Source of the DNA: Octopus vulgaris
Taxonomy: Eukaryota
Direction: 5' to 3'
Length of the DNA stretch: 64,000 nt
Assembly (NCBI GenBank): GCA_951406725.2
Contig: OX597822.1
Location: 15,004,001-15,068,000 of the forward strand
Shown here: in pieces, positions 11,054 to 49,651 of the stretch
Layout: each line of letters opens with the position of its first letter
Numbering within the stretch: the stretch's first letter is position 1
Notes under the pieces: model-generated
What the model saw: the letters and a program-made list of their open reading frames with translations, nothing else
Database searches by the model: none
Told to the model about the DNA's origin: nothing
Made by a program: the position numbers and the translations under genes

Positions 11054-11320
11054 TATATAAGAATGTTTTGCGTAATGAGATAAAAAACCAAGGCTGTATA
11101 GATATTAGCGCATTCAGCTGTTTCTAGGATATCAATTAATAATATCCTTTCATCGGAGACGGTGTGAGAGAAAAAATTAAGTCATAGTTAGTTTCGATGT
11201 GATTTCCTTTCACACCGTCTCCGATGAAGGGATATTATTAATTAATATTCTAGAAACAGCTGTAAGACCTATCTATAAAAGCTCTAATATCTATGTCATT
11301 ACGCAAAAAATTCTTATATA
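11054..11320. mobile_element. Palindromic (head-to-head) Penelope-like pseudo-LTR element
   Basis: Inverted arms ataagaat..ttgcgtaatga / tcattacgcaa..attcttat and cagctgtttctagga...catcggagacggtgtga / tcacaccgtctccgatg...tagaaacagctg. Confidence 0.75.
11217..11268 (+). ncRNA. Minimal type-I hammerhead ribozyme, CCGAUGA (U4C) variant
   Basis: GUCU-CCGAUGA-stem II (GGGAUAUUA..UAAUAUUCU)-GAAAC AGCU GUA-AGAC; stem I GUCU/AGAC; palindromic stem III. Confidence 0.7.
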
Positions 11321-16369: not shown

Positions 16370-16405
16370 CTTTCTGTCGAAGAGCATAGGCTCGAAACGT
16401 AAAAG
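16370..16405 (+). ncRNA. Minimal hammerhead ribozyme, CUGUCGA (A6U) variant, within a Penelope-like pLTR repeat (16335-16495)
   Basis: CUUU-CUGUCGA-A-GAGC auag GCUC-GAAAC-GUA-AAAG. Confidence 0.65.
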
Positions 16406-22061: not shown

Positions 22062-22107
<46 letters not shown>

Positions 22108-22189
22108 ACACAAAGCAACTCCAGCCTGGGAATCGAACCCACGAACTCGCAATGGTGAGTGCAACCCCCAAAGCACTAACCCATATTCG

Positions 22190-22490
22190 TTCCTTCTCCA
22201 ACCATGCCTGGCTCATAAGGGCCGGTTTCCCGGTTTCCTTGGCGTATAGATTCCCCACCTGGACGGGACGCCGGTCCGTCGCAGGTTAGCTGCAAGATGC
22301 AGGAGGAAAGAGTGAGAGAGAGAGAGTAGTGGCGACAGAGTCAGCAGAAGTTCGTCATTACCTTCTAACGGAGCCGCGTGGAGCTTGGGTGTTTCGCTCA
22401 TAAACACACTCATCGCCCGTTCTGAGATTCAAACCCGCGATCCCTCGACCGTGTGTCCGCTGCTCTAACCACTAGGCCATATGCCTCCAC
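22190..22490 (-). mobile_element. tRNA-derived SINE family C (V/Meta-SINE-like core)
   Basis: Reverse complement of 22695-22995. Confidence 0.8.
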
Positions 22491-22694
22491 ACTAAGCCCT
22501 GCTATACGAGTGTGTAGACAAACGAAAGAAGGGCACTCTTTCAGACCCCAATGGTCGAAGACTAGTGACTTGCTGGAAACTCGGAGAAATAACGATTCAG
22601 AATGAAATTGTTTTGATCTACACATGTAACTCCAAGCAAATGTGATGAGTGTCCTTCTTTCGTTTGTCTACGCATTCGTATAGCATGGCTTAGA

Positions 22695-22995
22695 GTGGAG
22701 GCACATGGCCTAGTGTTTAGGGCAGCGGACTCGCGGTCGAGGGATCGCGGGTTCGAATCTCAGACCGGGCGATGTCTGTGTTTATGAGCGAAACATCTAA
22801 GCTCCACGCGGCTCCGGTAGAAGTTAATGGCGAAACTTCTGCTGACTCTTTCGCCACTACTCTCTCTCACTCTTTCCTCCTGCATCTTGCAGCTCACCTG
22901 CGATGGACCGGCGTCCCTTACAGGTGGGGAACCTATACGCCAGGGAAACTGGGAAACCGGCCCTTATGAGCCAGGCATGGCTCGAGTAGGAACAA
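22695..22995 (+). mobile_element. tRNA-derived SINE family C (V/Meta-SINE-like core)
   Basis: Head tggcctagtg..agggcagcggactcgcgg...ggttcgaatc; core cctgcgatggaccggcgtccc..caggtgggg; tail aaaccggcccttatgagcc. Confidence 0.8.
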
Positions 22996-22996
22996 A

Positions 22997-23290
22997 CATG
23001 GCTTAGTGCTTTGAGTGTTGCACTCACCATAGCGAGAGCGTGGGTCCGATTCCCAGGCTGGAGCTGCTTTGTGTTATTGAGCAATGCACTACCTTTCACG
23101 TCGCTCTACGATCAGTTCGATATCTGACATGTGACACCCGTTGCACCTGTACAGGTAATGTCGACCTGATGGGGTGAGTGAGCTTATGTCTAAACAAACA
23201 TTCGATCACTATAAACAAATTGTCTGTGTGGTTGTTCGGCAAGAAATTTTTCAACCCTCATACGTCGTCTAACAACGAGAGAGTCCATCA
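22997..23290 (+). mobile_element. tRNA-derived SINE family D
   Basis: Head atggcttagtg...gttgcactcac...gtccgattccc followed by body. Confidence 0.6.
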
Positions 23291-26122: not shown

Positions 26123-26399
26123 CATATATACACGCGCATGCGCGCTAATGTCGGACAGTGAAAACGAGTGCTCAACATCACATTTTTTTTGACTGGCAAA
26201 TATACTTTATTTTACTCTACATGAATTCAATTTTTCATGTAGACTGAAATCTCGCAACAATTATCGACTATGCCACATGAAACGTTAGTAGTCGTCTTCA
26301 TCTTGGATGAGAATTGGTCGCCTTCATAACACATATAAAGCATGTGGACTATATATGTATATCTGTAATATAATATGTTACAAGTATTTGGTTGCCATA

Positions 26400-26458
26400 A
26401 TAAGACTCCGAGTTTCGGATGTCGGGAGGGAAACCTGCTCCGGCATCTCGTCAGTTAT
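26400..26458 (-). ncRNA. Type-I hammerhead ribozyme (canonical core)
   Basis: AUAA-CUGACGA-GAUGCCGGAG...CUCCCGACAUC-C-GAAAC UCGGA GUC-UUAU. Confidence 0.72.
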
Positions 26459-26532
26459 GGAGGCAATCAAAATATGCTATGAGAATGACCGTTAAACAAA
26501 GGTCATTTTCATTGCACATTTTGATTGCTTCG

Positions 26533-26591
26533 ATAACTGACGAGATGCTGGAGCAGATTTCCACCCCGACATCCGAAACTCAGAGTCTCAT
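26533..26591 (+). ncRNA. Type-I hammerhead ribozyme (canonical core, stem I mismatch)
   Basis: AUAA-CUGACGA-GAUG...CAUC-C-GAAAC UCAGA GUC-UCAU. Confidence 0.65.
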
Positions 26592-27536
26592 TATGGCAAC
26601 AGATAAATTCCTCTATTTAAATAATACTGAAGTCTCATTCATTTTTTTTTGTTATCTTACCATTACTATATATATATATATATATATATATGACAATTTA
26701 ATCCATGCTATTCATGTTCTATTTGTAATGATTATGTATGCCTAACTCATGTCATTTCCAAAAGAAAATTTACCATTCTTCATTGAAATCGTTGTAAAAG
26801 TTTTCCTTCGGTTAAACATTTTAAACCTAAACATTCAATGAAATTAAGCGTGGAATCCAGTAACAACTATTTGATATATTTCAATGAAACAATATTGATA
26901 AGGTATATAAGTATCTCACACATAGATTATTAGAGAACTATTTATATTTACATTTTATATAAATGAAAATGAGAAATATAATTATGTTCAATAAGTATAT
27001 TCGCTTTATATCTTCGATGTAGTGTGAAGACGATTATACATTCATACATTCCCAATGAAAAGTCTCTGCGAAGTCCTATAATATATCAGTACAAAGTGTT
27101 GTGGCAAATATATAATTGTACGGACATATTAATAATATTTTCATTTAATCATATTTTACTGTTAATGAAGGCAATATATTTTTATTCAGTGTTTCCTATT
27201 TCCCTCGTCGTTCGTTATTAACACATTCCATTACCGTTTTTGCCATATTCTTCGTGTTACATAGATTCCCTTCCGTAGACTATTTCTCTCTAAGTCCAGA
27301 GAATATATTTAAATGAAATACAAATTCACTTGCAAAAAAAAAGACATGTTTAATTCTCCATATATATTCTCTTGATAATCCCAAGAAGGAAATACCATCT
27401 TTTTTTTTTATTTATTTAAGTGTGAGGATATTTCTAGAATTTAGGTTTTAAAATATTCTTTTCCAAAGAAATAAAGTTAGAATCCCAAGTTAATTTTGAA
27501 ACCTTGAAAAAAAAAAAAAATGATTGAAGTGCGAGA

Positions 27537-32999: not shown

Positions 33000-33290
33000 T
33001 GAGAATTTACAAAAAGAAAAAAAAAGACAAAAGACGAAGACGGGTGTGTAAACAACAAACAGATGTACATTATTTACATTATTTATATTTGACGGATATT
33101 TGTCCTCATCTTGTTTGTTGTTAACACACTGTTTCAGCTGATATATCCTCCAGCCTTCATCAGGTGTCTTGGGGAAATGTAAATAATGTAAATAATGTGC
33201 ATAATTCATCATCTCTTAAATATAGAACTGTAACAAACAAATGTATTAATTTAATGCTCGGAAAGTGAGAAAGTATTTTACGTTTCGAAT
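33000..33290 (-). mobile_element. CUGUCGA-family pLTR fragment interrupted by a collapsed palindromic hammerhead element (33068-33231)
   Basis: Outer parts match 36846-36972 in reverse; insert has inverted ends acattatttacattattta / taaataatgtaaataatgt; TSD aacaaaca(g/a)atgta. Confidence 0.7.
33124..33167 (-). ncRNA. Minimal hammerhead ribozyme, mutated at stem III/cleavage site
   Basis: ACAC-CUGAUGA-AGGCUG gaggauauau CAGCU-GAAAC-AGU-GUGU. Confidence 0.6.
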
Positions 33291-36845: not shown

Positions 36846-36881
36846 CTTTCTGTCGAAGAGCGTAGGTTCGAAACGTAAAAG
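36846..36881 (+). ncRNA. Minimal hammerhead, CUGUCGA variant (pLTR repeat 36833-36972)
   Basis: CUUU-CUGUCGA-A-GAGC guag GUUC-GAAAC-GUA-AAAG. Confidence 0.65.
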
Positions 36882-37865: not shown

Positions 37866-37904
<39 letters not shown>

Positions 37905-38248
37905 GCGTATCACTTAGGTTGACGAGGGAAGGATGACCTCTCTTTGCAAATACCGATAGGGCACAGAAAGTGTGCTTATAGCCAGCTGGAGGAGATGTTC
38001 TCCTGGGGCTACAAGCTACAGTAACACCCACCCTTAGTGGTTAGCCATATTGAGATGGCAAATATACCTCACATTGTCGTGCAGTTACTGTTTATACCTC
38101 GTTCAGAGATTTATTAACATACATATACATATAAATATTTATATATATATATATATAATATTAATTAGAGACAAAACCACTATTTTGCAAAACAAACAAG
38201 GAAAGACTTAATCAATACATAAAATTTTAATAAAAAGTAAAAAAACCG

Positions 38249-38289
38249 CCACTACAATTGTTTCATGTCTAATGACAATCTTCAGGTGG
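38249..38289 (-). ncRNA. Intact minimal type-I hammerhead ribozyme
   Basis: Exact reverse complement of 38344-38384. Confidence 0.82.
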
Positions 38290-38343
38290 ATTTCCAAATC
38301 AGTTTCAATTTCATAAATTGAAACTGATTTGAAAATCGGAAAT

Positions 38344-38384
38344 CCACCTGAAGATTGTCATTAGACATGAAACAATTGTAGTGG
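38344..38384 (+). ncRNA. Intact minimal type-I hammerhead ribozyme
   Basis: CCAC-CUGAAGA-U-UGUC auua GACA-U-GAAAC AAUU GUA-GUGG; predicted cleavage after 38380. Confidence 0.82.
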
Positions 38385-38559
38385 CGTTTTTTTTACTTTT
38401 TATTAAAATGTTATGTATTGATTAAGTCTTTCCTTGTTTGTTTTGCAAAATAGTGGTTTTGTCTCTAATTAATATTATATAATATTTTACTATAAAATTG
38501 GATTTAATCCTAAATCTGATTTTTTCCCTGTAAATTTGGATTTAATCCCTAATATTTAT

Positions 38560-38620
<61 letters not shown>

Positions 38621-39774: not shown

Positions 39775-41180
39775 AAAAGAAGCCTAAAAGAAGGAACACA
39801 CTGAGTCCAAAACCAGGGAAGCAAGGATCCTGCTGCCTTGGCAGACCACCTTAATAGAGATGGTGTCTCGATAAAAATACAGGTTGGTAGTAACCTAAAA
39901 ACATACCTTATTAGTGAGTGAAAATGCCAAACAAAATAAATAGCGAAAACGGTGTGAACGGGACTGGAACTAATGATGAAGGCGCCGCACCCGACAGGTT
40001 CCCCACTGTGCGGCAGGGTGGGCCCGGTCGTAATCCAGCAATTGCTAGCCATGCTACAAGACACATGTGGAGTAAACAAGTAATTGTTTTGGTATGTTAC
40101 TACTGGAGCACCCCAGTGGACGCGAATGGCGCGCCTGTCAGAGGGTACAGAAAACGAATGCACAATGAATGGAAGGCAATGGAATTGTTTGAAATTACTG
40201 AAGGGAGACTATGTGACCAAGCTAGAGCAATACGAAAGAATGGATTGTTAACAGAACTGGAGCTAGAAGCTATTAAAAGAGCGATATTGAGTGAGGATGG
40301 GCATGCGAGAAATGAAAGTGATATAGGGGAGGAGATGGACAATTGTTCGCAAGAATATAATACCGTGAATTGTGAAAGAATTGAGATAAATGACTACTCA
40401 CACAATGAAGATAGATTAATAATAGACAGAATTTTAGATCTATTAAATACAGAGGGGACAGAATTTGTGTGCGAGTTTAAGAAGGCTAACCAATGGAGAC
40501 TAAATCAAGAGACGAATCAAGTCGATAATAAATTGAGACACATTGAAACAAAGAATATCACAAAAACAAATAATCTCATAAAAACTGCTGGTAGGACTGT
40601 GGTGGAAAGGATAGGATTGAGAACTACTGAAAATAGAACAGTGACAGATAGAAGAGGAAATAAACAACCGTGGTGGAAAAGGAGAATTTGTGAAGATATA
40701 AACTCGAAAAGGTTAGGAAGAAGTATGATGTAGATACGAAAGGTCTGAATGTTGTGATTGAAGAACTGAAGCAGCGCATACTTGCAAAAAGGCAAAGCGA
40801 ACGAGGTTTGAACAACAGATTCAACAATACCAGCGAAACAAGTTGTTTAGAATCGACCAAAAAGATTTTACCAAGCGATTAATGACAATAAAAAACGTGA
40901 AAAATTAGTCTCTGATGCTGATGAAAGTCGACTTTTCTGGAGTAAAATATGGAGCAAGCTAGAACAACATAATACTACAGCTGAATGGCTCTGCAGCGTG
41001 AAGCAAACAGTTTCTTATCCCCAGCAAGGGGCTATCCACTTCACAGAAGATTGTATCAGAGATATGAGTAAAAAGATAAGCAATTGGAAATCCGCAGGAT
41101 CTAATGTACAGTGATTTTGGATCAAAAAAAGTTCAGTAGTTGCCATAAATTGACCGCAGAACAATTGAATGCAATGGCAA
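39775..41180 (+). mobile_element. 5' half of an R4/Dong retrotransposon (5' UTR + ORF N-terminus, broken before the RT)
   Basis: CYY...RGYRKRMHNEW...EGRLCDQARAIRKNG.LTELELEAI; PWWKRRI; frameshifted EELKQRILAK, NKLFRIDQKRFY, FWSKIW..HN..AEWL, NWKS.G...FWIK. Confidence 0.88.
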
Positions 41181-41623: not shown

Positions 41624-41799
41624 TATGCTTTATTAAAAAATCTGCAAAGATATCTCAAAAACTGTTACCCAGAGTTTCACGTTTCCGTTTGTCGGACAGT
41701 TTTGTTTGAAATTCTCAGGCAAAACTGTTCGACGAATTGGATCGTGAAACTCTAAGTAACAATATTTGTGATATTTTTGCAGCTTTATTAATAAAGTAT

Positions 41800-41800
<1 letters not shown>
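41624..41800. mobile_element. Palindromic pLTR element with degenerate CCGAC(G)A-type hammerheads on both arms
   Basis: Minus: AAAACUGU-CCGACAA-ACG gaaa CGU-GAAAC UCUGG GUA-ACAGUUUU; plus 41721-41764: aaaactgt-tcgacga-...cgt-gaaac tctaa gta-acaat. Confidence 0.7.
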
Positions 41801-42577: not shown

Positions 42578-42784
42578 TGACACAAGTCAAATGGGCTCCA
42601 AGTAAGTTGGTAGTTTTCTACGTTTAAAATTGTTGATTGTCAAACATTTTATTTCTAAAAGGTGTACAACACCCAACCCATACTTTCATTAACATCCACA
42701 CAAAATTTCGCCCTATGTGGGCAAAATTAAAAAAAAATTCTCAAAGGCTTCGTGGTTTTATTTTAGCCATTTTTATTTTCAAAA

Positions 42785-44023
42785 ATGGCTACTGGTCACC
42801 ACGAGGCCGAGGCGCAAGTCAAGCGTGACGCCGAAACAAAAGAGCAAGATTCCCTGTCACTAAAAAGTGAACCTGACAGTTTGAACGCCGCTAACATCAA
42901 CACCACCACCACCACCACCACTATCAGCATCAACAACAGCAACAACCACAAAACCAAGGTCCCAGGGCCAAGCACCGTCACCGCCACCAATGATCCAACC
43001 ATCAACACCGACACCACCACCATGGCGGTTTCTGCTACTACAGCTGCTTCCTCTGCTAACGATACCACTAACAACAACAACAAACCAAGATCACCAGACC
43101 AATCACCATCACCGTCACCAAACACCGTCAATACCAATGCTACTATGGCTGCCTCCCTTGCCACTAACACCACCGCCGCCACCAAGAACGACAAAAACAA
43201 CGATATCGTCGTTTTGCCGTGTACGATAACCGCCAACAATAACACCACTACTACAACCTCAACTACTACAAGTGACACCTCTGTCACCAACACTACCACC
43301 AAACCCAATTTTGCACAAGCATTAAAACCAAAAAAGACAATATTACACTTCACAACAGAACAAATAAAAAAAACAAAAGCCCTGTTAACTGAAGAAGGTT
43401 CACATCTACGCTTACATATACCACAAAACATCATAGACACCACACAAAAGAAGACAATAATATACAAATTCCTAAACGCAAAAACACGCCGACCAGAACA
43501 AACACAAGCAGAACTGATTGAAAAATGTTTACGGTCAATATGGGCCTACAAAAATGATTTAAATTGGGGAAACAAATATGCCACGATACAGGTTCGCTTC
43601 GACAGCGAAGAAAGAGCGAAAGAACTTTCGACGCTCACATTACAGTCGGAAAAACTAATTTTAATTCCGACCTACCTTGGTCAACGCGTGATCAAAATTT
43701 CGATTAAAAATGTCCCTCCAGAAATAGATTCACAATGGCTGTTGTCAGCCATTTGCTACAAAATGGAGGAAAATATAAATATTCTGGAATATGCCGCCTT
43801 CGAAGAAAAGAAATGGTCGGGGAAAATAGTTCAGTTATTGATGCAAATTGACCAAAACCAAATCAATAACATCCCCCACCAAATTGAGCTGCCAGACGAC
43901 AATTTCCTTTACGTAGTGGTAAAGGGTAGGAGGCCTCGCTGTTTCTTGTGTGGCACCGAGGAACACCTAAGAAGTGATTGCCCAACAACAAAAAAACAAC
44001 AACAAAAATCAGAACAAGAATAA
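42785..44023 (+). CDS. Retrotransposon ORF1 (gag-like; Thr/Asn-rich N-terminus, RRM-like region, CCHC knuckle); probably continued, disrupted, to ~44780
   Basis: 412 aa ORF ending GRRPRCFLCGTEEHLRSDCP (CX2CX4HX4C). Confidence 0.75.
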   Translation: MATGHHEAEAQVKRDAETKEQDSLSLKSEPDSLNAANINTTTTTTTISINNSNNHKTKVPGPSTVTATNDPTINTDTTTMAVSATTAASSANDTTNNNNKPRSPDQSPSPSPNTVNTNATMAASLATNTTAATKNDKNNDIVVLPCTITANNNTTTTTSTTTSDTSVTNTTTKPNFAQALKPKKTILHFTTEQIKKTKALLTEEGSHLRLHIPQNIIDTTQKKTIIYKFLNAKTRRPEQTQAELIEKCLRSIWAYKNDLNWGNKYATIQVRFDSEERAKELSTLTLQSEKLILIPTYLGQRVIKISIKNVPPEIDSQWLLSAICYKMEENINILEYAAFEEKKWSGKIVQLLMQIDQNQINNIPHQIELPDDNFLYVVVKGRRPRCFLCGTEEHLRSDCPTTKKQQQKSEQE

Positions 44024-44842
44024 CAACAACCATAACATGGGGAAAAGTCAAAAGAAAAAATAACACTACTACCCACACCACCATCAGCACAGAGGACAGA
44101 CAAAGGGAGTACGAAACCAAACCCGCCAACACCAACAAATGAACACACAACATCTGAAAATCACCACCAACAGCAAGAACTTAGGAAACAGAAAAACCAA
44201 AAGATAGTACAAAAACTGATTCCCCTTCCCTCACATCACACACAAGCAGTCAACAACCAACATCAACGAAAACAACAACACAACCAATTACACAAAAACA
44301 CATTGAAGCCTACAACATGCCCCTACCCCTTTCCGATTCCTCGGAAATTTCGTCGGAAGACGAAAGCACTGAGGAATGGCAAATAGCAAGAAAAGGAAGG
44401 AGGAAAAGGAACAAAAAAAAAAAGAACGAGATCCAATACAAACGCAAACAAAGCAGTGATATATACACCTGAAGACATCTCAAACCTTACCACAAACAAT
44501 ATCAACGCCATAAAAATATATAAAAAGAATATGCTCACAGCCATAGACACCAAAAACACAGAGTTGATGAAATACATCAACACAAACACAAACATTACAG
44601 AAAACGACATTAAAACGAACAACCACCCACACACAACACCACCAGAACGCATAAAAATTTACCACATATCATCACATACTAAAATCCCTCCCAATGCGGT
44701 AGGGGGATATCATAAATATTTATGCAAAAAATGTATAACAGCCTCCTTGATGAAAAATCAAAGGAGGAGACAAATCTTTTGAAAGGTAAGTAACTCTCCT
44801 TTCCTTTCGTTTGTGTTTTAAGGCACACAACTCAATAGGATC

Positions 44843-46200
44843 ATGGTCAAGATTGGTTGTGTGAATGCGTGTGGCTTGGGGTCCCCTTGGAAACAAGGGT
44901 ACCTTTTAAATGACATCAAGTCACATAATTTGGAAATCATAGCAATAAGTGTGACCAGACACCATGAACCACGGGCCCTAAAGCCCATGTTTGGTGAACG
45001 GTTTAACATTTATTTTTCTCCCTGTCTGCCAAGAATGAGCGGTAGTGGCACGGTGGTACTTTTTCGCAAGAGTCTGGATCTCGAAGTAAAGACGATATTC
45101 GTAGATCCGGAGAATAGACTGGTTGTCCTGGATGTCGACGGCAGGGATGGGTGCGCTTTTCTACTCCTGGCAGTTTATGCACCGCCTTTAACAGGTCGGC
45201 CGGATTTCTTTCAAAGTCTAAGTATTCCTTGGAACGTCTCGTCCTTCACTTTTAGTGGGGGATTGGAATGCTATCTTGGACACGCATCTAGACTACGTGG
45301 GGAGAGACGAAAATAGACGGGGATGTAAATGCCTTAGAGACCTGCTCAAACGCTTTCAACTGTCTGACAGGTACCGACTCGACCACCCAAATGTGCCAAC
45401 GTGGACATGGAGCAACCGCATTGGGTCGTTGAGATTGTATCTAGATAGGATACTATGCAGGACAGCAGATAGGGATAGCTTAGGATGTCCACAATTCCAT
45501 TTAATCAGCTACACAGATCACAAACTAGTGACGTGTACGCTAGACTTGGATAAGGCACATAGGCAGGGTTCCGGTTACTGGAAACTGAACCCGTCTTTCT
45601 CGTCGAAACAGGTTTTCAGAAACCGAATTAGCACACTAGTAAAGAGGGCTTTGACGGGAGCCATCGTCAACAACAAATGTTGGTTTGCCCTGAAGAGAGC
45701 AGTAAAAGCAGAAGCCATTAGGTATAGCAAAGCACTAGCCATAGATAAAAACAGAGTAGAGGGTGAGCTAGTTAAGAAGTTAGAAGAGGCAATAAGAAGC
45801 GGCATCTCATCCGACATTTTGGCGGCGAGGTTGGCCCTCGACCAACACTTCAACGCCACAAATACTGTCAGGGCTAGGATGCGTGCTCTAAAGATGGAAG
45901 GTGTTGGAGCCGCGAGAGAGGCCAGGGTGGCGGAGGCGCAACGGGGCAACAAAGCCACCATTCGGTCTCTGTTAGATGAACAGGGACGCGAGTTGCTCTA
46001 GCCGAGAAAGATGTGCGAGGCATTTCAGCGGCATTTTGCTCGACTGTACGGGACGAGTGGCGAGTGTGAACGCAGGGTGGACTTCAGTGCCTACCTGCAC
46101 AGCCTGCCACGACTCTCGGCAAGAGAGGCAGCGTGCTGCGAAGGTGCCATCACGGCGGCGGATGTGCGGGACGCAATGGCAGAATGCTCGAGAGACAAAT
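44843..46200 (+). pseudogene. ORF2 apurinic-type endonuclease and linker, frameshifted
   Basis: CVNACGL, AVYAP, GDWNA, WTWSN...YLDRI, TDHKLV, GYWKLN; frameshift ~45215, stop at 46001. Confidence 0.88.
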
Positions 46201-48530: not shown

Positions 48531-49319
48531 TATGTGTATATATATATACAAACATGCGTGTGTGTTTGAATATGTCTCTCTCACTGTATGTATGTATGAA
48601 AACACACGTATACTCACTTGGAGTAGCCTTTATTTATTTCAAATTGTTGCACTCTGCCCTCACACAAATATCCACGATCAACATTCTACGCGTTCATTCT
48701 GTTTTCCTTTCTGCCCGTTCGCTTCATTAGCTGATCAGCTTGTCTCGCGAGGAACTGAAATAAAGAATTTCATTTGAAACTTTCGAAGCATATCAAGAGA
48801 CCTGATAAGATTTCTGTGCAGCAGCAGTAGAATTTCAACTGGGAGTTACAACAATAATTAGATTTACTCCATGAATAGTCATTTAAGATGAAGCTATTTA
48901 TATTATGAACTACGTTAAAATATGTGCGTAACCTGCAAATTTTGATTAACCTTTGTTTGCAAATATTCATGAATCGTGTAAATAGAGAGGTGGTGTACAT
49001 ATGTTTCTAGTAAATGATAGTTATATATTTCATCTGCCCTAAAGGTTTAGAACATAAAATTAGCATCGAGAGTCTCTAATCTAAGTATCAGCTCAATACC
49101 TCTTGGCGTTTATTTTCTTTTCTAATCATTCATTCCTGTAGTTAATACATCACTAGTGAAATATACTGATTTTCTTTCAAGTGGTTGTAGAAATAATAAA
49201 GAATTTAGCGAAATATCATCACCACTATTATTCTGGTGTTTGCAACACAAATCAACATGAAATGTTGACAGACGTTGGTAATTTAGATAAAGTTTGTATC
49301 TTTGAAGCACGTGTGGTCT

Positions 49320-49620
49320 TCCTTCTTCCTCGAGCCACACCTGGCTCATAAGGGCCGGTTTCCCGGTTTCCTTGGCGAATAGGTTCCCCACCTGGACGGG
49401 ACGCCGGTCCGTCGCAGGTGAGCTGCAAGATGCAGGAGGAAATAGTGAGAGAAAGTTGTGGCGAAAGAATCAGTAGAAGTTCGCCATTACCTTCTGCCGG
49501 AGCCGCGTGGAGCTTAGGTGTTTCGCTCATAAACACACACATCGCCCGGTCTGGGGTTTGAACCCGCGATCCCTCAACCACGAGGTCCGCTGTTCTAACC
49601 ACTAGGCCATATGCCCCCAC
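49320..49620 (-). mobile_element. SINE family C
   Basis: Closely matches 22190-22490. Confidence 0.85.
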
Positions 49621-49651
49621 ACGTGCGGTCTTAGGTTGGTGTAAAGAGGGC

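Follow-up and report, generated by a model that had tools for sequence, protein, structure and literature searches.

EN+ Penelope-like insertions are described in PMC8557442 as an inverted, 5'-truncated copy with a tail at one end and a bias toward (TA)n, and the head-to-head junctions reported in PMC3846280 carry palindromes for which self-priming was proposed, a route close to the snap-back of a cDNA. In PMC11167929, cutting was followed by extension on both strands, and the tail was defined by two internal start sites. Dual minimal hammerheads on opposite strands, 100-700 bp apart, were reported in 2014 (PMC4209133), and non-LTR retrozymes have been linked in print to PLE pLTRs (PMC7229834; bioRxiv 10.64898/2026.07.22.740005). 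Octopus vulgaris has recently active Penelope elements (30 families, 329 insertions), as documented in PMC13282606, the main text of which does not mention hammerheads. Besides PMC8557442, our literature search returned no paper linking Penelope-like, hammerhead and octopus, and no Penelope paper combining "twin priming" with "pLTR". Here we describe a palindrome in a stretch of 64,000 nucleotides of O. vulgaris DNA (the window), all coordinates being positions within that stretch. It consists of two short, non-coding end pieces of a hammerhead repeat joined head to head in (TA)n, which very probably arose as one recent Penelope-like insertion. The palindrome is most likely a recent example of an established type of retroelement footprint, and its layout has already been published.

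The palindrome occupies 330 bp (38152-38481), is 74% AT and has 160-bp arms. When the reverse complement of the left arm (38152-38311) was compared with the right arm (38315-38481), 158 of 160 aligned positions were equal, the two substitutions being 38246/38387 and 38223/38410. The left arm is an inverted copy (minus strand) that ends at the short 3' end, equivalent to 38481, and lacks one of two near-identical 7-mers; the corresponding 7-nt unit forms a bulge in the right arm (38331-38337, plus strand), 16 bp from a 3-nt apex loop (38312-38314). The right arm is a direct copy (38310-38481, plus strand) that runs from the commonly seen 5' start of the family to the short 3' end point, and the loop has right-arm family sequence, given that family contigs match without any deviating letter from 38310 onward. 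With the right arm beginning at ~38310, the two copies overlap by ~2 nt at the junction. The original prediction had described arms pairing nearly base for base around a 3-nt loop, a description that holds except that the 7-nt bulge was overlooked. As DNA the palindrome folded at -170.7 kcal/mol (z = -37.8), a value equaled by none of 100 shuffles. With 74% AT and a 3-nt loop, cruciform extrusion would be possible; it would need negative supercoiling, because a crude calculation put the cost of the cruciform relative to duplex DNA at roughly 43 kcal/mol. The palindrome had also been called young, a view borne out by the 1.25% divergence (substitutions) between its arms as against the 79-87% self-match identity in the three other hammerhead palindromes of the window.

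The two ends of the insertion are unequal, and the flanks are not mirror images of each other. The right arm continues ~70 nt past the end point of the left arm into a one-sided 3' extension, or tail, of family sequence (38482-38554, plus strand), over which contig depth remained high to 38550. Both ends enter (TA)n, on the left at a (TA)-rich target tract (38119-38151, part of an AT array called at 38119-38161) and on the right at an (AT)n target tract (38552-38606) whose junction with the tail can be placed only to within a few bases. A target-site duplication is unreadable, both insertion ends merging into TA microsatellite. The extent originally given for the feature (38152..38560) had the correct start and included the 330-bp palindrome, which ends at 38481; the remainder is the one-sided extension. 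The tail (38482-38560) contains a 38-nt direct repeat, which is imperfect, and sequence predicted to form a 13-bp hairpin (z = -2.8); together these are a candidate start structure for reverse transcription. The left flank (37900-38110) is a separate, very high-copy repeat with many opposite-strand joints in its other copies.

For a survey of the family, contigs of sequencing runs were aligned to the window; 20 listed runs from 9 studies contain part of it. In three of four runs, summed contig depth, which is not copy number, was 1e4-1e6 on the arms and tail vs ~8-39 on the unique right flank, which suggests, allowing for contig overlap, roughly hundreds to thousands of tail copies with fewer reaching the hammerhead. 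The 3' part of the family greatly outnumbered the 5' part, as expected from 5' truncation. At least eight head-to-head joints with other break points were present among the joints listed for runs X1-X3, and further inverted or TA-joined 5' ends were located at 38307-38318 in X1, X4, X8 and X16. There were two 3' end points in the family, with loose ends entering TA repeats at 38469-38481 (X3) and other contigs continuing through 38524. Family depth at both substitution sites favored the left arm, whereas at the 7-mer a depth of 28,472 (X1) at 38334-38364, compared with 1,797 at the mirrored bin 38272-38302, identified the right arm as the family state; therefore, each arm has private changes. 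The 7-nt loss in the left arm, which removed one of two tandem near-identical 7-mers, is best read as slippage. The abundant repeat family and the Penelope-type layout of the inverted insertion had both escaped the earlier reading of this DNA.

In the mechanism that we propose for such an insertion, a Penelope-like endonuclease would have cut both DNA strands within the TA tract, and at each cut end reverse transcriptase would have begun to copy the RNA at a different point, 38554 or 38481, which lie ~70 nt from each other. Both cDNA copies would have ended at nearly coincident 5' positions (38310 and 38315) before being joined via the ~2-nt overlap; alternatively, the first cDNA may have snapped back on itself, a step that would give the same apex picture. 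The hammerheads would be passengers of the end repeat of the element. None of the 141 window reading frames scanned (of 244 filtered) matched a reverse transcriptase or GIY-YIG Pfam family, and such a frame is not expected within a truncated stub.

One variant of this scenario keeps the insertion mechanism and changes the identity of the family, which would be a short (~245 nt) non-autonomous RNA or retrozyme-type monomer mobilized in trans by Penelope enzymes instead of the end of a coding element. We regard this variant as possible though rather unlikely. It draws on the distribution of 5' ends, which clustered near 38307-38316, where four of the 16 arm starts lay (P ~0.015-0.07), and included at least five loose ends near 38310, among those listed, that had no common upstream sequence beyond 2-3 letters; together these ends suggest a preferred 5' start near 38310. 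It also agrees with the absence of a reading frame downstream of the hammerhead of the kind present in Poseidon, all three frames being closed, and with the folding of the 245-nt unit (z = -2.8). However, the locus holds no head-to-tail tandem and no end-to-start joint appeared among the matches listed, short contigs may hide a shared upstream continuation, and reverse transcription that begins within a full-length RNA, at its first tail site, and proceeds to the transcription start would likewise give a fixed start. A more elaborate version, which we consider doubtful, treats the family as a SINE-like RNA (~245 nt) that is complete in itself and has its 5' end fixed 34 nt upstream of a hammerhead that stays uncut. 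Penelope enzymes would copy it at both ends of one DNA break from sites 70 nt apart. Selection would maintain its hammerhead, in which stem II is closed by something other than G-C (U·U, A-U or U·G), and cleavage would require either an intermolecular dimer or assistance from protein. Were this SINE-like reading true, a young, nearly full-length double copy such as the present one would be a clean substrate for separating two-end priming from cDNA snap-back.

The hammerheads themselves are two identical 41-mers, 38344-38384 (plus strand) and 38249-38289 (minus strand), which lie on opposite strands, both facing outward from the apex, and whose predicted cuts fall after 38380 and between 38253 and 38252, respectively. 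Judged by its sequence, the 38344-38384 motif is a type I hammerhead: it agreed with the core at every position (C3-U4-G5-A6-N7-G8-A9, G12-A13-A14-A15.1 and U16.1-H17), the triplet is GUA, and helices I/II/III could be drawn at 4/4/2 bp with helix I open. Stem III comprises 2 bp within a self-complementary octamer that forms an 8-bp duplex (-6.4 kcal/mol), so that the self-complementarity noted originally, and its fit to a known dimer design, were confirmed. Stem II is closed by U·U (10.1 = U38355, 11.1 = U38368), and the conserved G10.1-C11.1 pair is absent. Loss of this pair lowers hammerhead activity, and no figure for its rate cost was found in the literature consulted. The two motifs had been presented as identical and intact; their identity, core, 4-bp stem I and GUA all stand, while "intact" fails at 10.1/11.1, where U·U is present and not G-C. 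A relaxed type I descriptor returned three exact-core sites across the 64-kb window, two of which were the palindrome copies, and no exact-core site in any of 20 block shuffles. Rfam yielded no gathering hits over the whole window and no hammerhead family among 38 weak rows to E = 10, and it likewise missed the other hammerheads of the window; weak matches to generic hairpin (miRNA-type) models were below the models' own thresholds and were set aside. No metagenome contig matched a 21-nt piece of the motif.

Relatives of this copy retain the catalytic core. Between 38280 and 38400 in four runs (copies at least 80% alike, away from contig ends), the substitutions listed at 2% or more fell only at N7, 10.1 and 11.1, and the changes at 10.1 and 11.1 would each turn U·U into a pair (A-U or U·G). 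There were also at least 12 insertions or deletions among those listed for the same interval and runs, of which 10 fell within loop II or next to it. The retention of the core across relatives hints, at the level of sequence, at selection on the motif of the family.

Folding predictions gave little indication that the copies at this locus would cleave. For the 41-mer, the hammerhead fold had an energy of -3.5 kcal/mol vs -6.5 kcal/mol for the minimum-energy fold, and in the 41-mer alone the predicted probability was 0.011 for stems I and II together and 0.08% for all three stems. The probability of stems I and II fell to 0.0001-0.004 in RNAs started at the apex and to ~1e-48 in an RNA running through the whole palindrome. 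An intermolecular dimer of the 41-mer gained only ~3 kcal/mol, a rough value that considers nested folds only. With the hammerhead copies on opposite strands, one RNA carries just one sense motif and no dimer can form in cis, and in read-through RNA from either direction the antisense arm is made first. Because each RNA has a single sense motif and its antisense arm is transcribed first, the palindrome would work against cleavage, and its arrangement is predicted to prevent the ribozymes from acting instead of aiding them; any read-through RNA would fold as a 160-bp hairpin, in which the hammerheads of the 38152-38481 copy are predicted to be silent. A small palindromic stem III with a short stem I is described in PMC4209133 as a dimer-type design, and the same source reports that a single minimal hammerhead motif showed no cleavage and dimers low cleavage. 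PMC11167929 reports a Penelope hammerhead that depends on its protein for cleavage and is dispensable for insertion in vitro. Family contigs over the motif, one of them spanning the predicted cut, were present in runs X8 and X16, which we guess to be RNA; such contigs show neither expression nor cleavage.

These predictions bear on the proposal that the locus is a functional ribozyme cassette, in which a putative promoter at the apex would drive divergent RNAs whose identical hammerheads dimerize in trans via stem III and cut after GUA. The exact core, the confinement of listed family variation to N7, 10.1, 11.1 and loop II and the pairing restored by each of the two stem II changes speak for it, as do the use of GUA as a working triplet in natural hammerheads (PMC1636495) and the protein-assisted cleavage reported for a Penelope hammerhead. 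Nevertheless, RNAs diverging from the apex would be near-identical sense copies of the sort that any two family copies supply, so that the palindrome adds nothing. When these points are combined with predicted stem I and II formation at or below 0.4% in apex-started RNAs, the small gain on dimerization, the U·U closure of stem II and the poor activity published for minimal hammerheads, a functional cassette appears improbable. The original ranking of the locus as the best candidate for an active ribozyme was not sustained, given the opposite strands and the antisense arm made first, the value of ~1e-48 in read-through RNA, 0.08% in the monomer and ~3 kcal/mol in the dimer, and the U·U closure.

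An assembly or library fold-back artefact was also considered. No contig bridged the exact apex in 7 runs, and depth was 0 at 38280-38284 in 4 of 4 runs, contigs recording presence only; X2 and X6 contain the unique right flank yet had no matching apex letters at 38309, and an X1 contig (depth 9.85) near 38309 stopped short of the left arm. The insertion may be polymorphic, and contigs that record presence only are compatible with a genuine locus. The arms differ by a 7-nt indel, two substitutions and a one-sided 70-nt extension, and each arm retains the family state where the other arm changed. An artefact is very unlikely, since the inequality of the arms follows the family pattern, the flanks are unmirrored and the same family forms other inverted joints in independent runs. 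Least probable is a MITE or fold-back DNA transposon with a hammerhead present by chance in its terminal inverted repeats, which would suit the near-perfect arms, AT richness, TA target and high copy number but is largely refuted by joints whose apex position and arm length vary among copies (at least eight different ones among those listed), by asymmetric ends instead of fixed symmetric terminal inverted repeats of uniform length, and by a 3' part far commoner than the 5' part, which fits 5' truncation.

Several other repeats were noted in the window, including three older hammerhead palindromes that belong to families other than that of 38152-38481. One of these (26391-26600, 87% self-match) is a head-to-head palindrome with two hammerheads of another family, which have exact cores, a GUC triplet and a long stem II, and its right arm appears to extend ~70 nt to a TA tract. 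The palindrome at 11054-11320 is head to head and decayed, its plus-strand copy being a type I hammerhead that deviates once from the core and has a palindromic stem III and a stem II of 9 bp. Also decayed is the head-to-head palindrome at 41624-41800 (79% self-match), in which hammerhead-like remains that the descriptor missed were seen by eye on both arms. Two copies of another repeat (16374-16401 and 36850-36877) have textbook minimal-hammerhead architecture, with a bulged A, G10.1-C11.1 and a palindromic stem III of 2 nt, each copy deviating once from the core. A lone hammerhead-like core at 33131-33163 (minus strand) has a long stem II and matches the first box exactly, its stem I and cut site looking decayed. 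A 970-bp inverted pair (22105-23077, 85% self-match) consists of a GC-richer repeat, with a further copy at 49319-49622, that by eye we take to resemble a tRNA-derived SINE. The region 42767-46001 contains a broken LINE-type element in which a zinc knuckle and an endonuclease were matched, neither reaching its Pfam cut-off, and the reading-frame remains at 1018-1587 and 39918-40733 presumably resemble non-LTR retrotransposon proteins. Across the 141 of 244 filtered frames searched, Pfam detected no Penelope protein and just weak LINE-type matches (42767-45998) and low-complexity ones, none of them relevant at 1018-1587 or 39918-40733.

As a single locus the palindrome matters little, being one Penelope-type stub among many, with three others in the window. 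For the origin of Penelope inversions, the literature sets self-priming on an antisense template against other routes, and young copies that pair a short end with a long end constrain the answer. The role of hammerheads in the element cycle is a second question for which the family could be of use, since its combination of a retained core with a variable 10.1-11.1 pair makes it a cheap test case.

Among described systems, the metazoan non-LTR retrozymes (PMC7229834; bioRxiv 10.64898/2026.07.22.740005) resemble the present family in being non-coding and AT-rich, with a type I hammerhead and a unit near 250 nt; unlike them, the locus has only an inverted pair, with no head-to-tail units and no end-to-start joint among the matches listed. 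The min-HHR of metazoan PLE pLTRs (PMC4209133) is closer, sharing the exact catalytic core, the 4-bp helix I (4-5 bp class), the small palindromic helix III, a loop II that is variable across the family and opposite-strand pairs within 100-700 bp. It differs in that helix II is here 4 bp and U·U-closed (A-U or U·G in relatives), whereas the published consensus has an extra base after A9, G10.1-C11.1 and a long helix II, although the supplement alignments of that paper may hold a U·U variant, and in that the helix III insert is here 4 nt. With respect to layout, the closest counterparts are the pLTR insertions of EN+ Penelope-like elements (PMC3846280, PMC8557442, PMC11167929). The differences from these are that no reading frame or parent element was found here, that the tail, at ~70 nt, exceeds the published 30-40 bp, and that both arms reach nearly the same 5' point. 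What the locus shares with the EN+ Penelope-like insertions described in these sources is a head-to-head inverted copy, a short junction palindrome, an extension at one end only, a (TA)n target, a hammerhead inside the repeat and membership in a dispersed, mostly 5'-truncated family.
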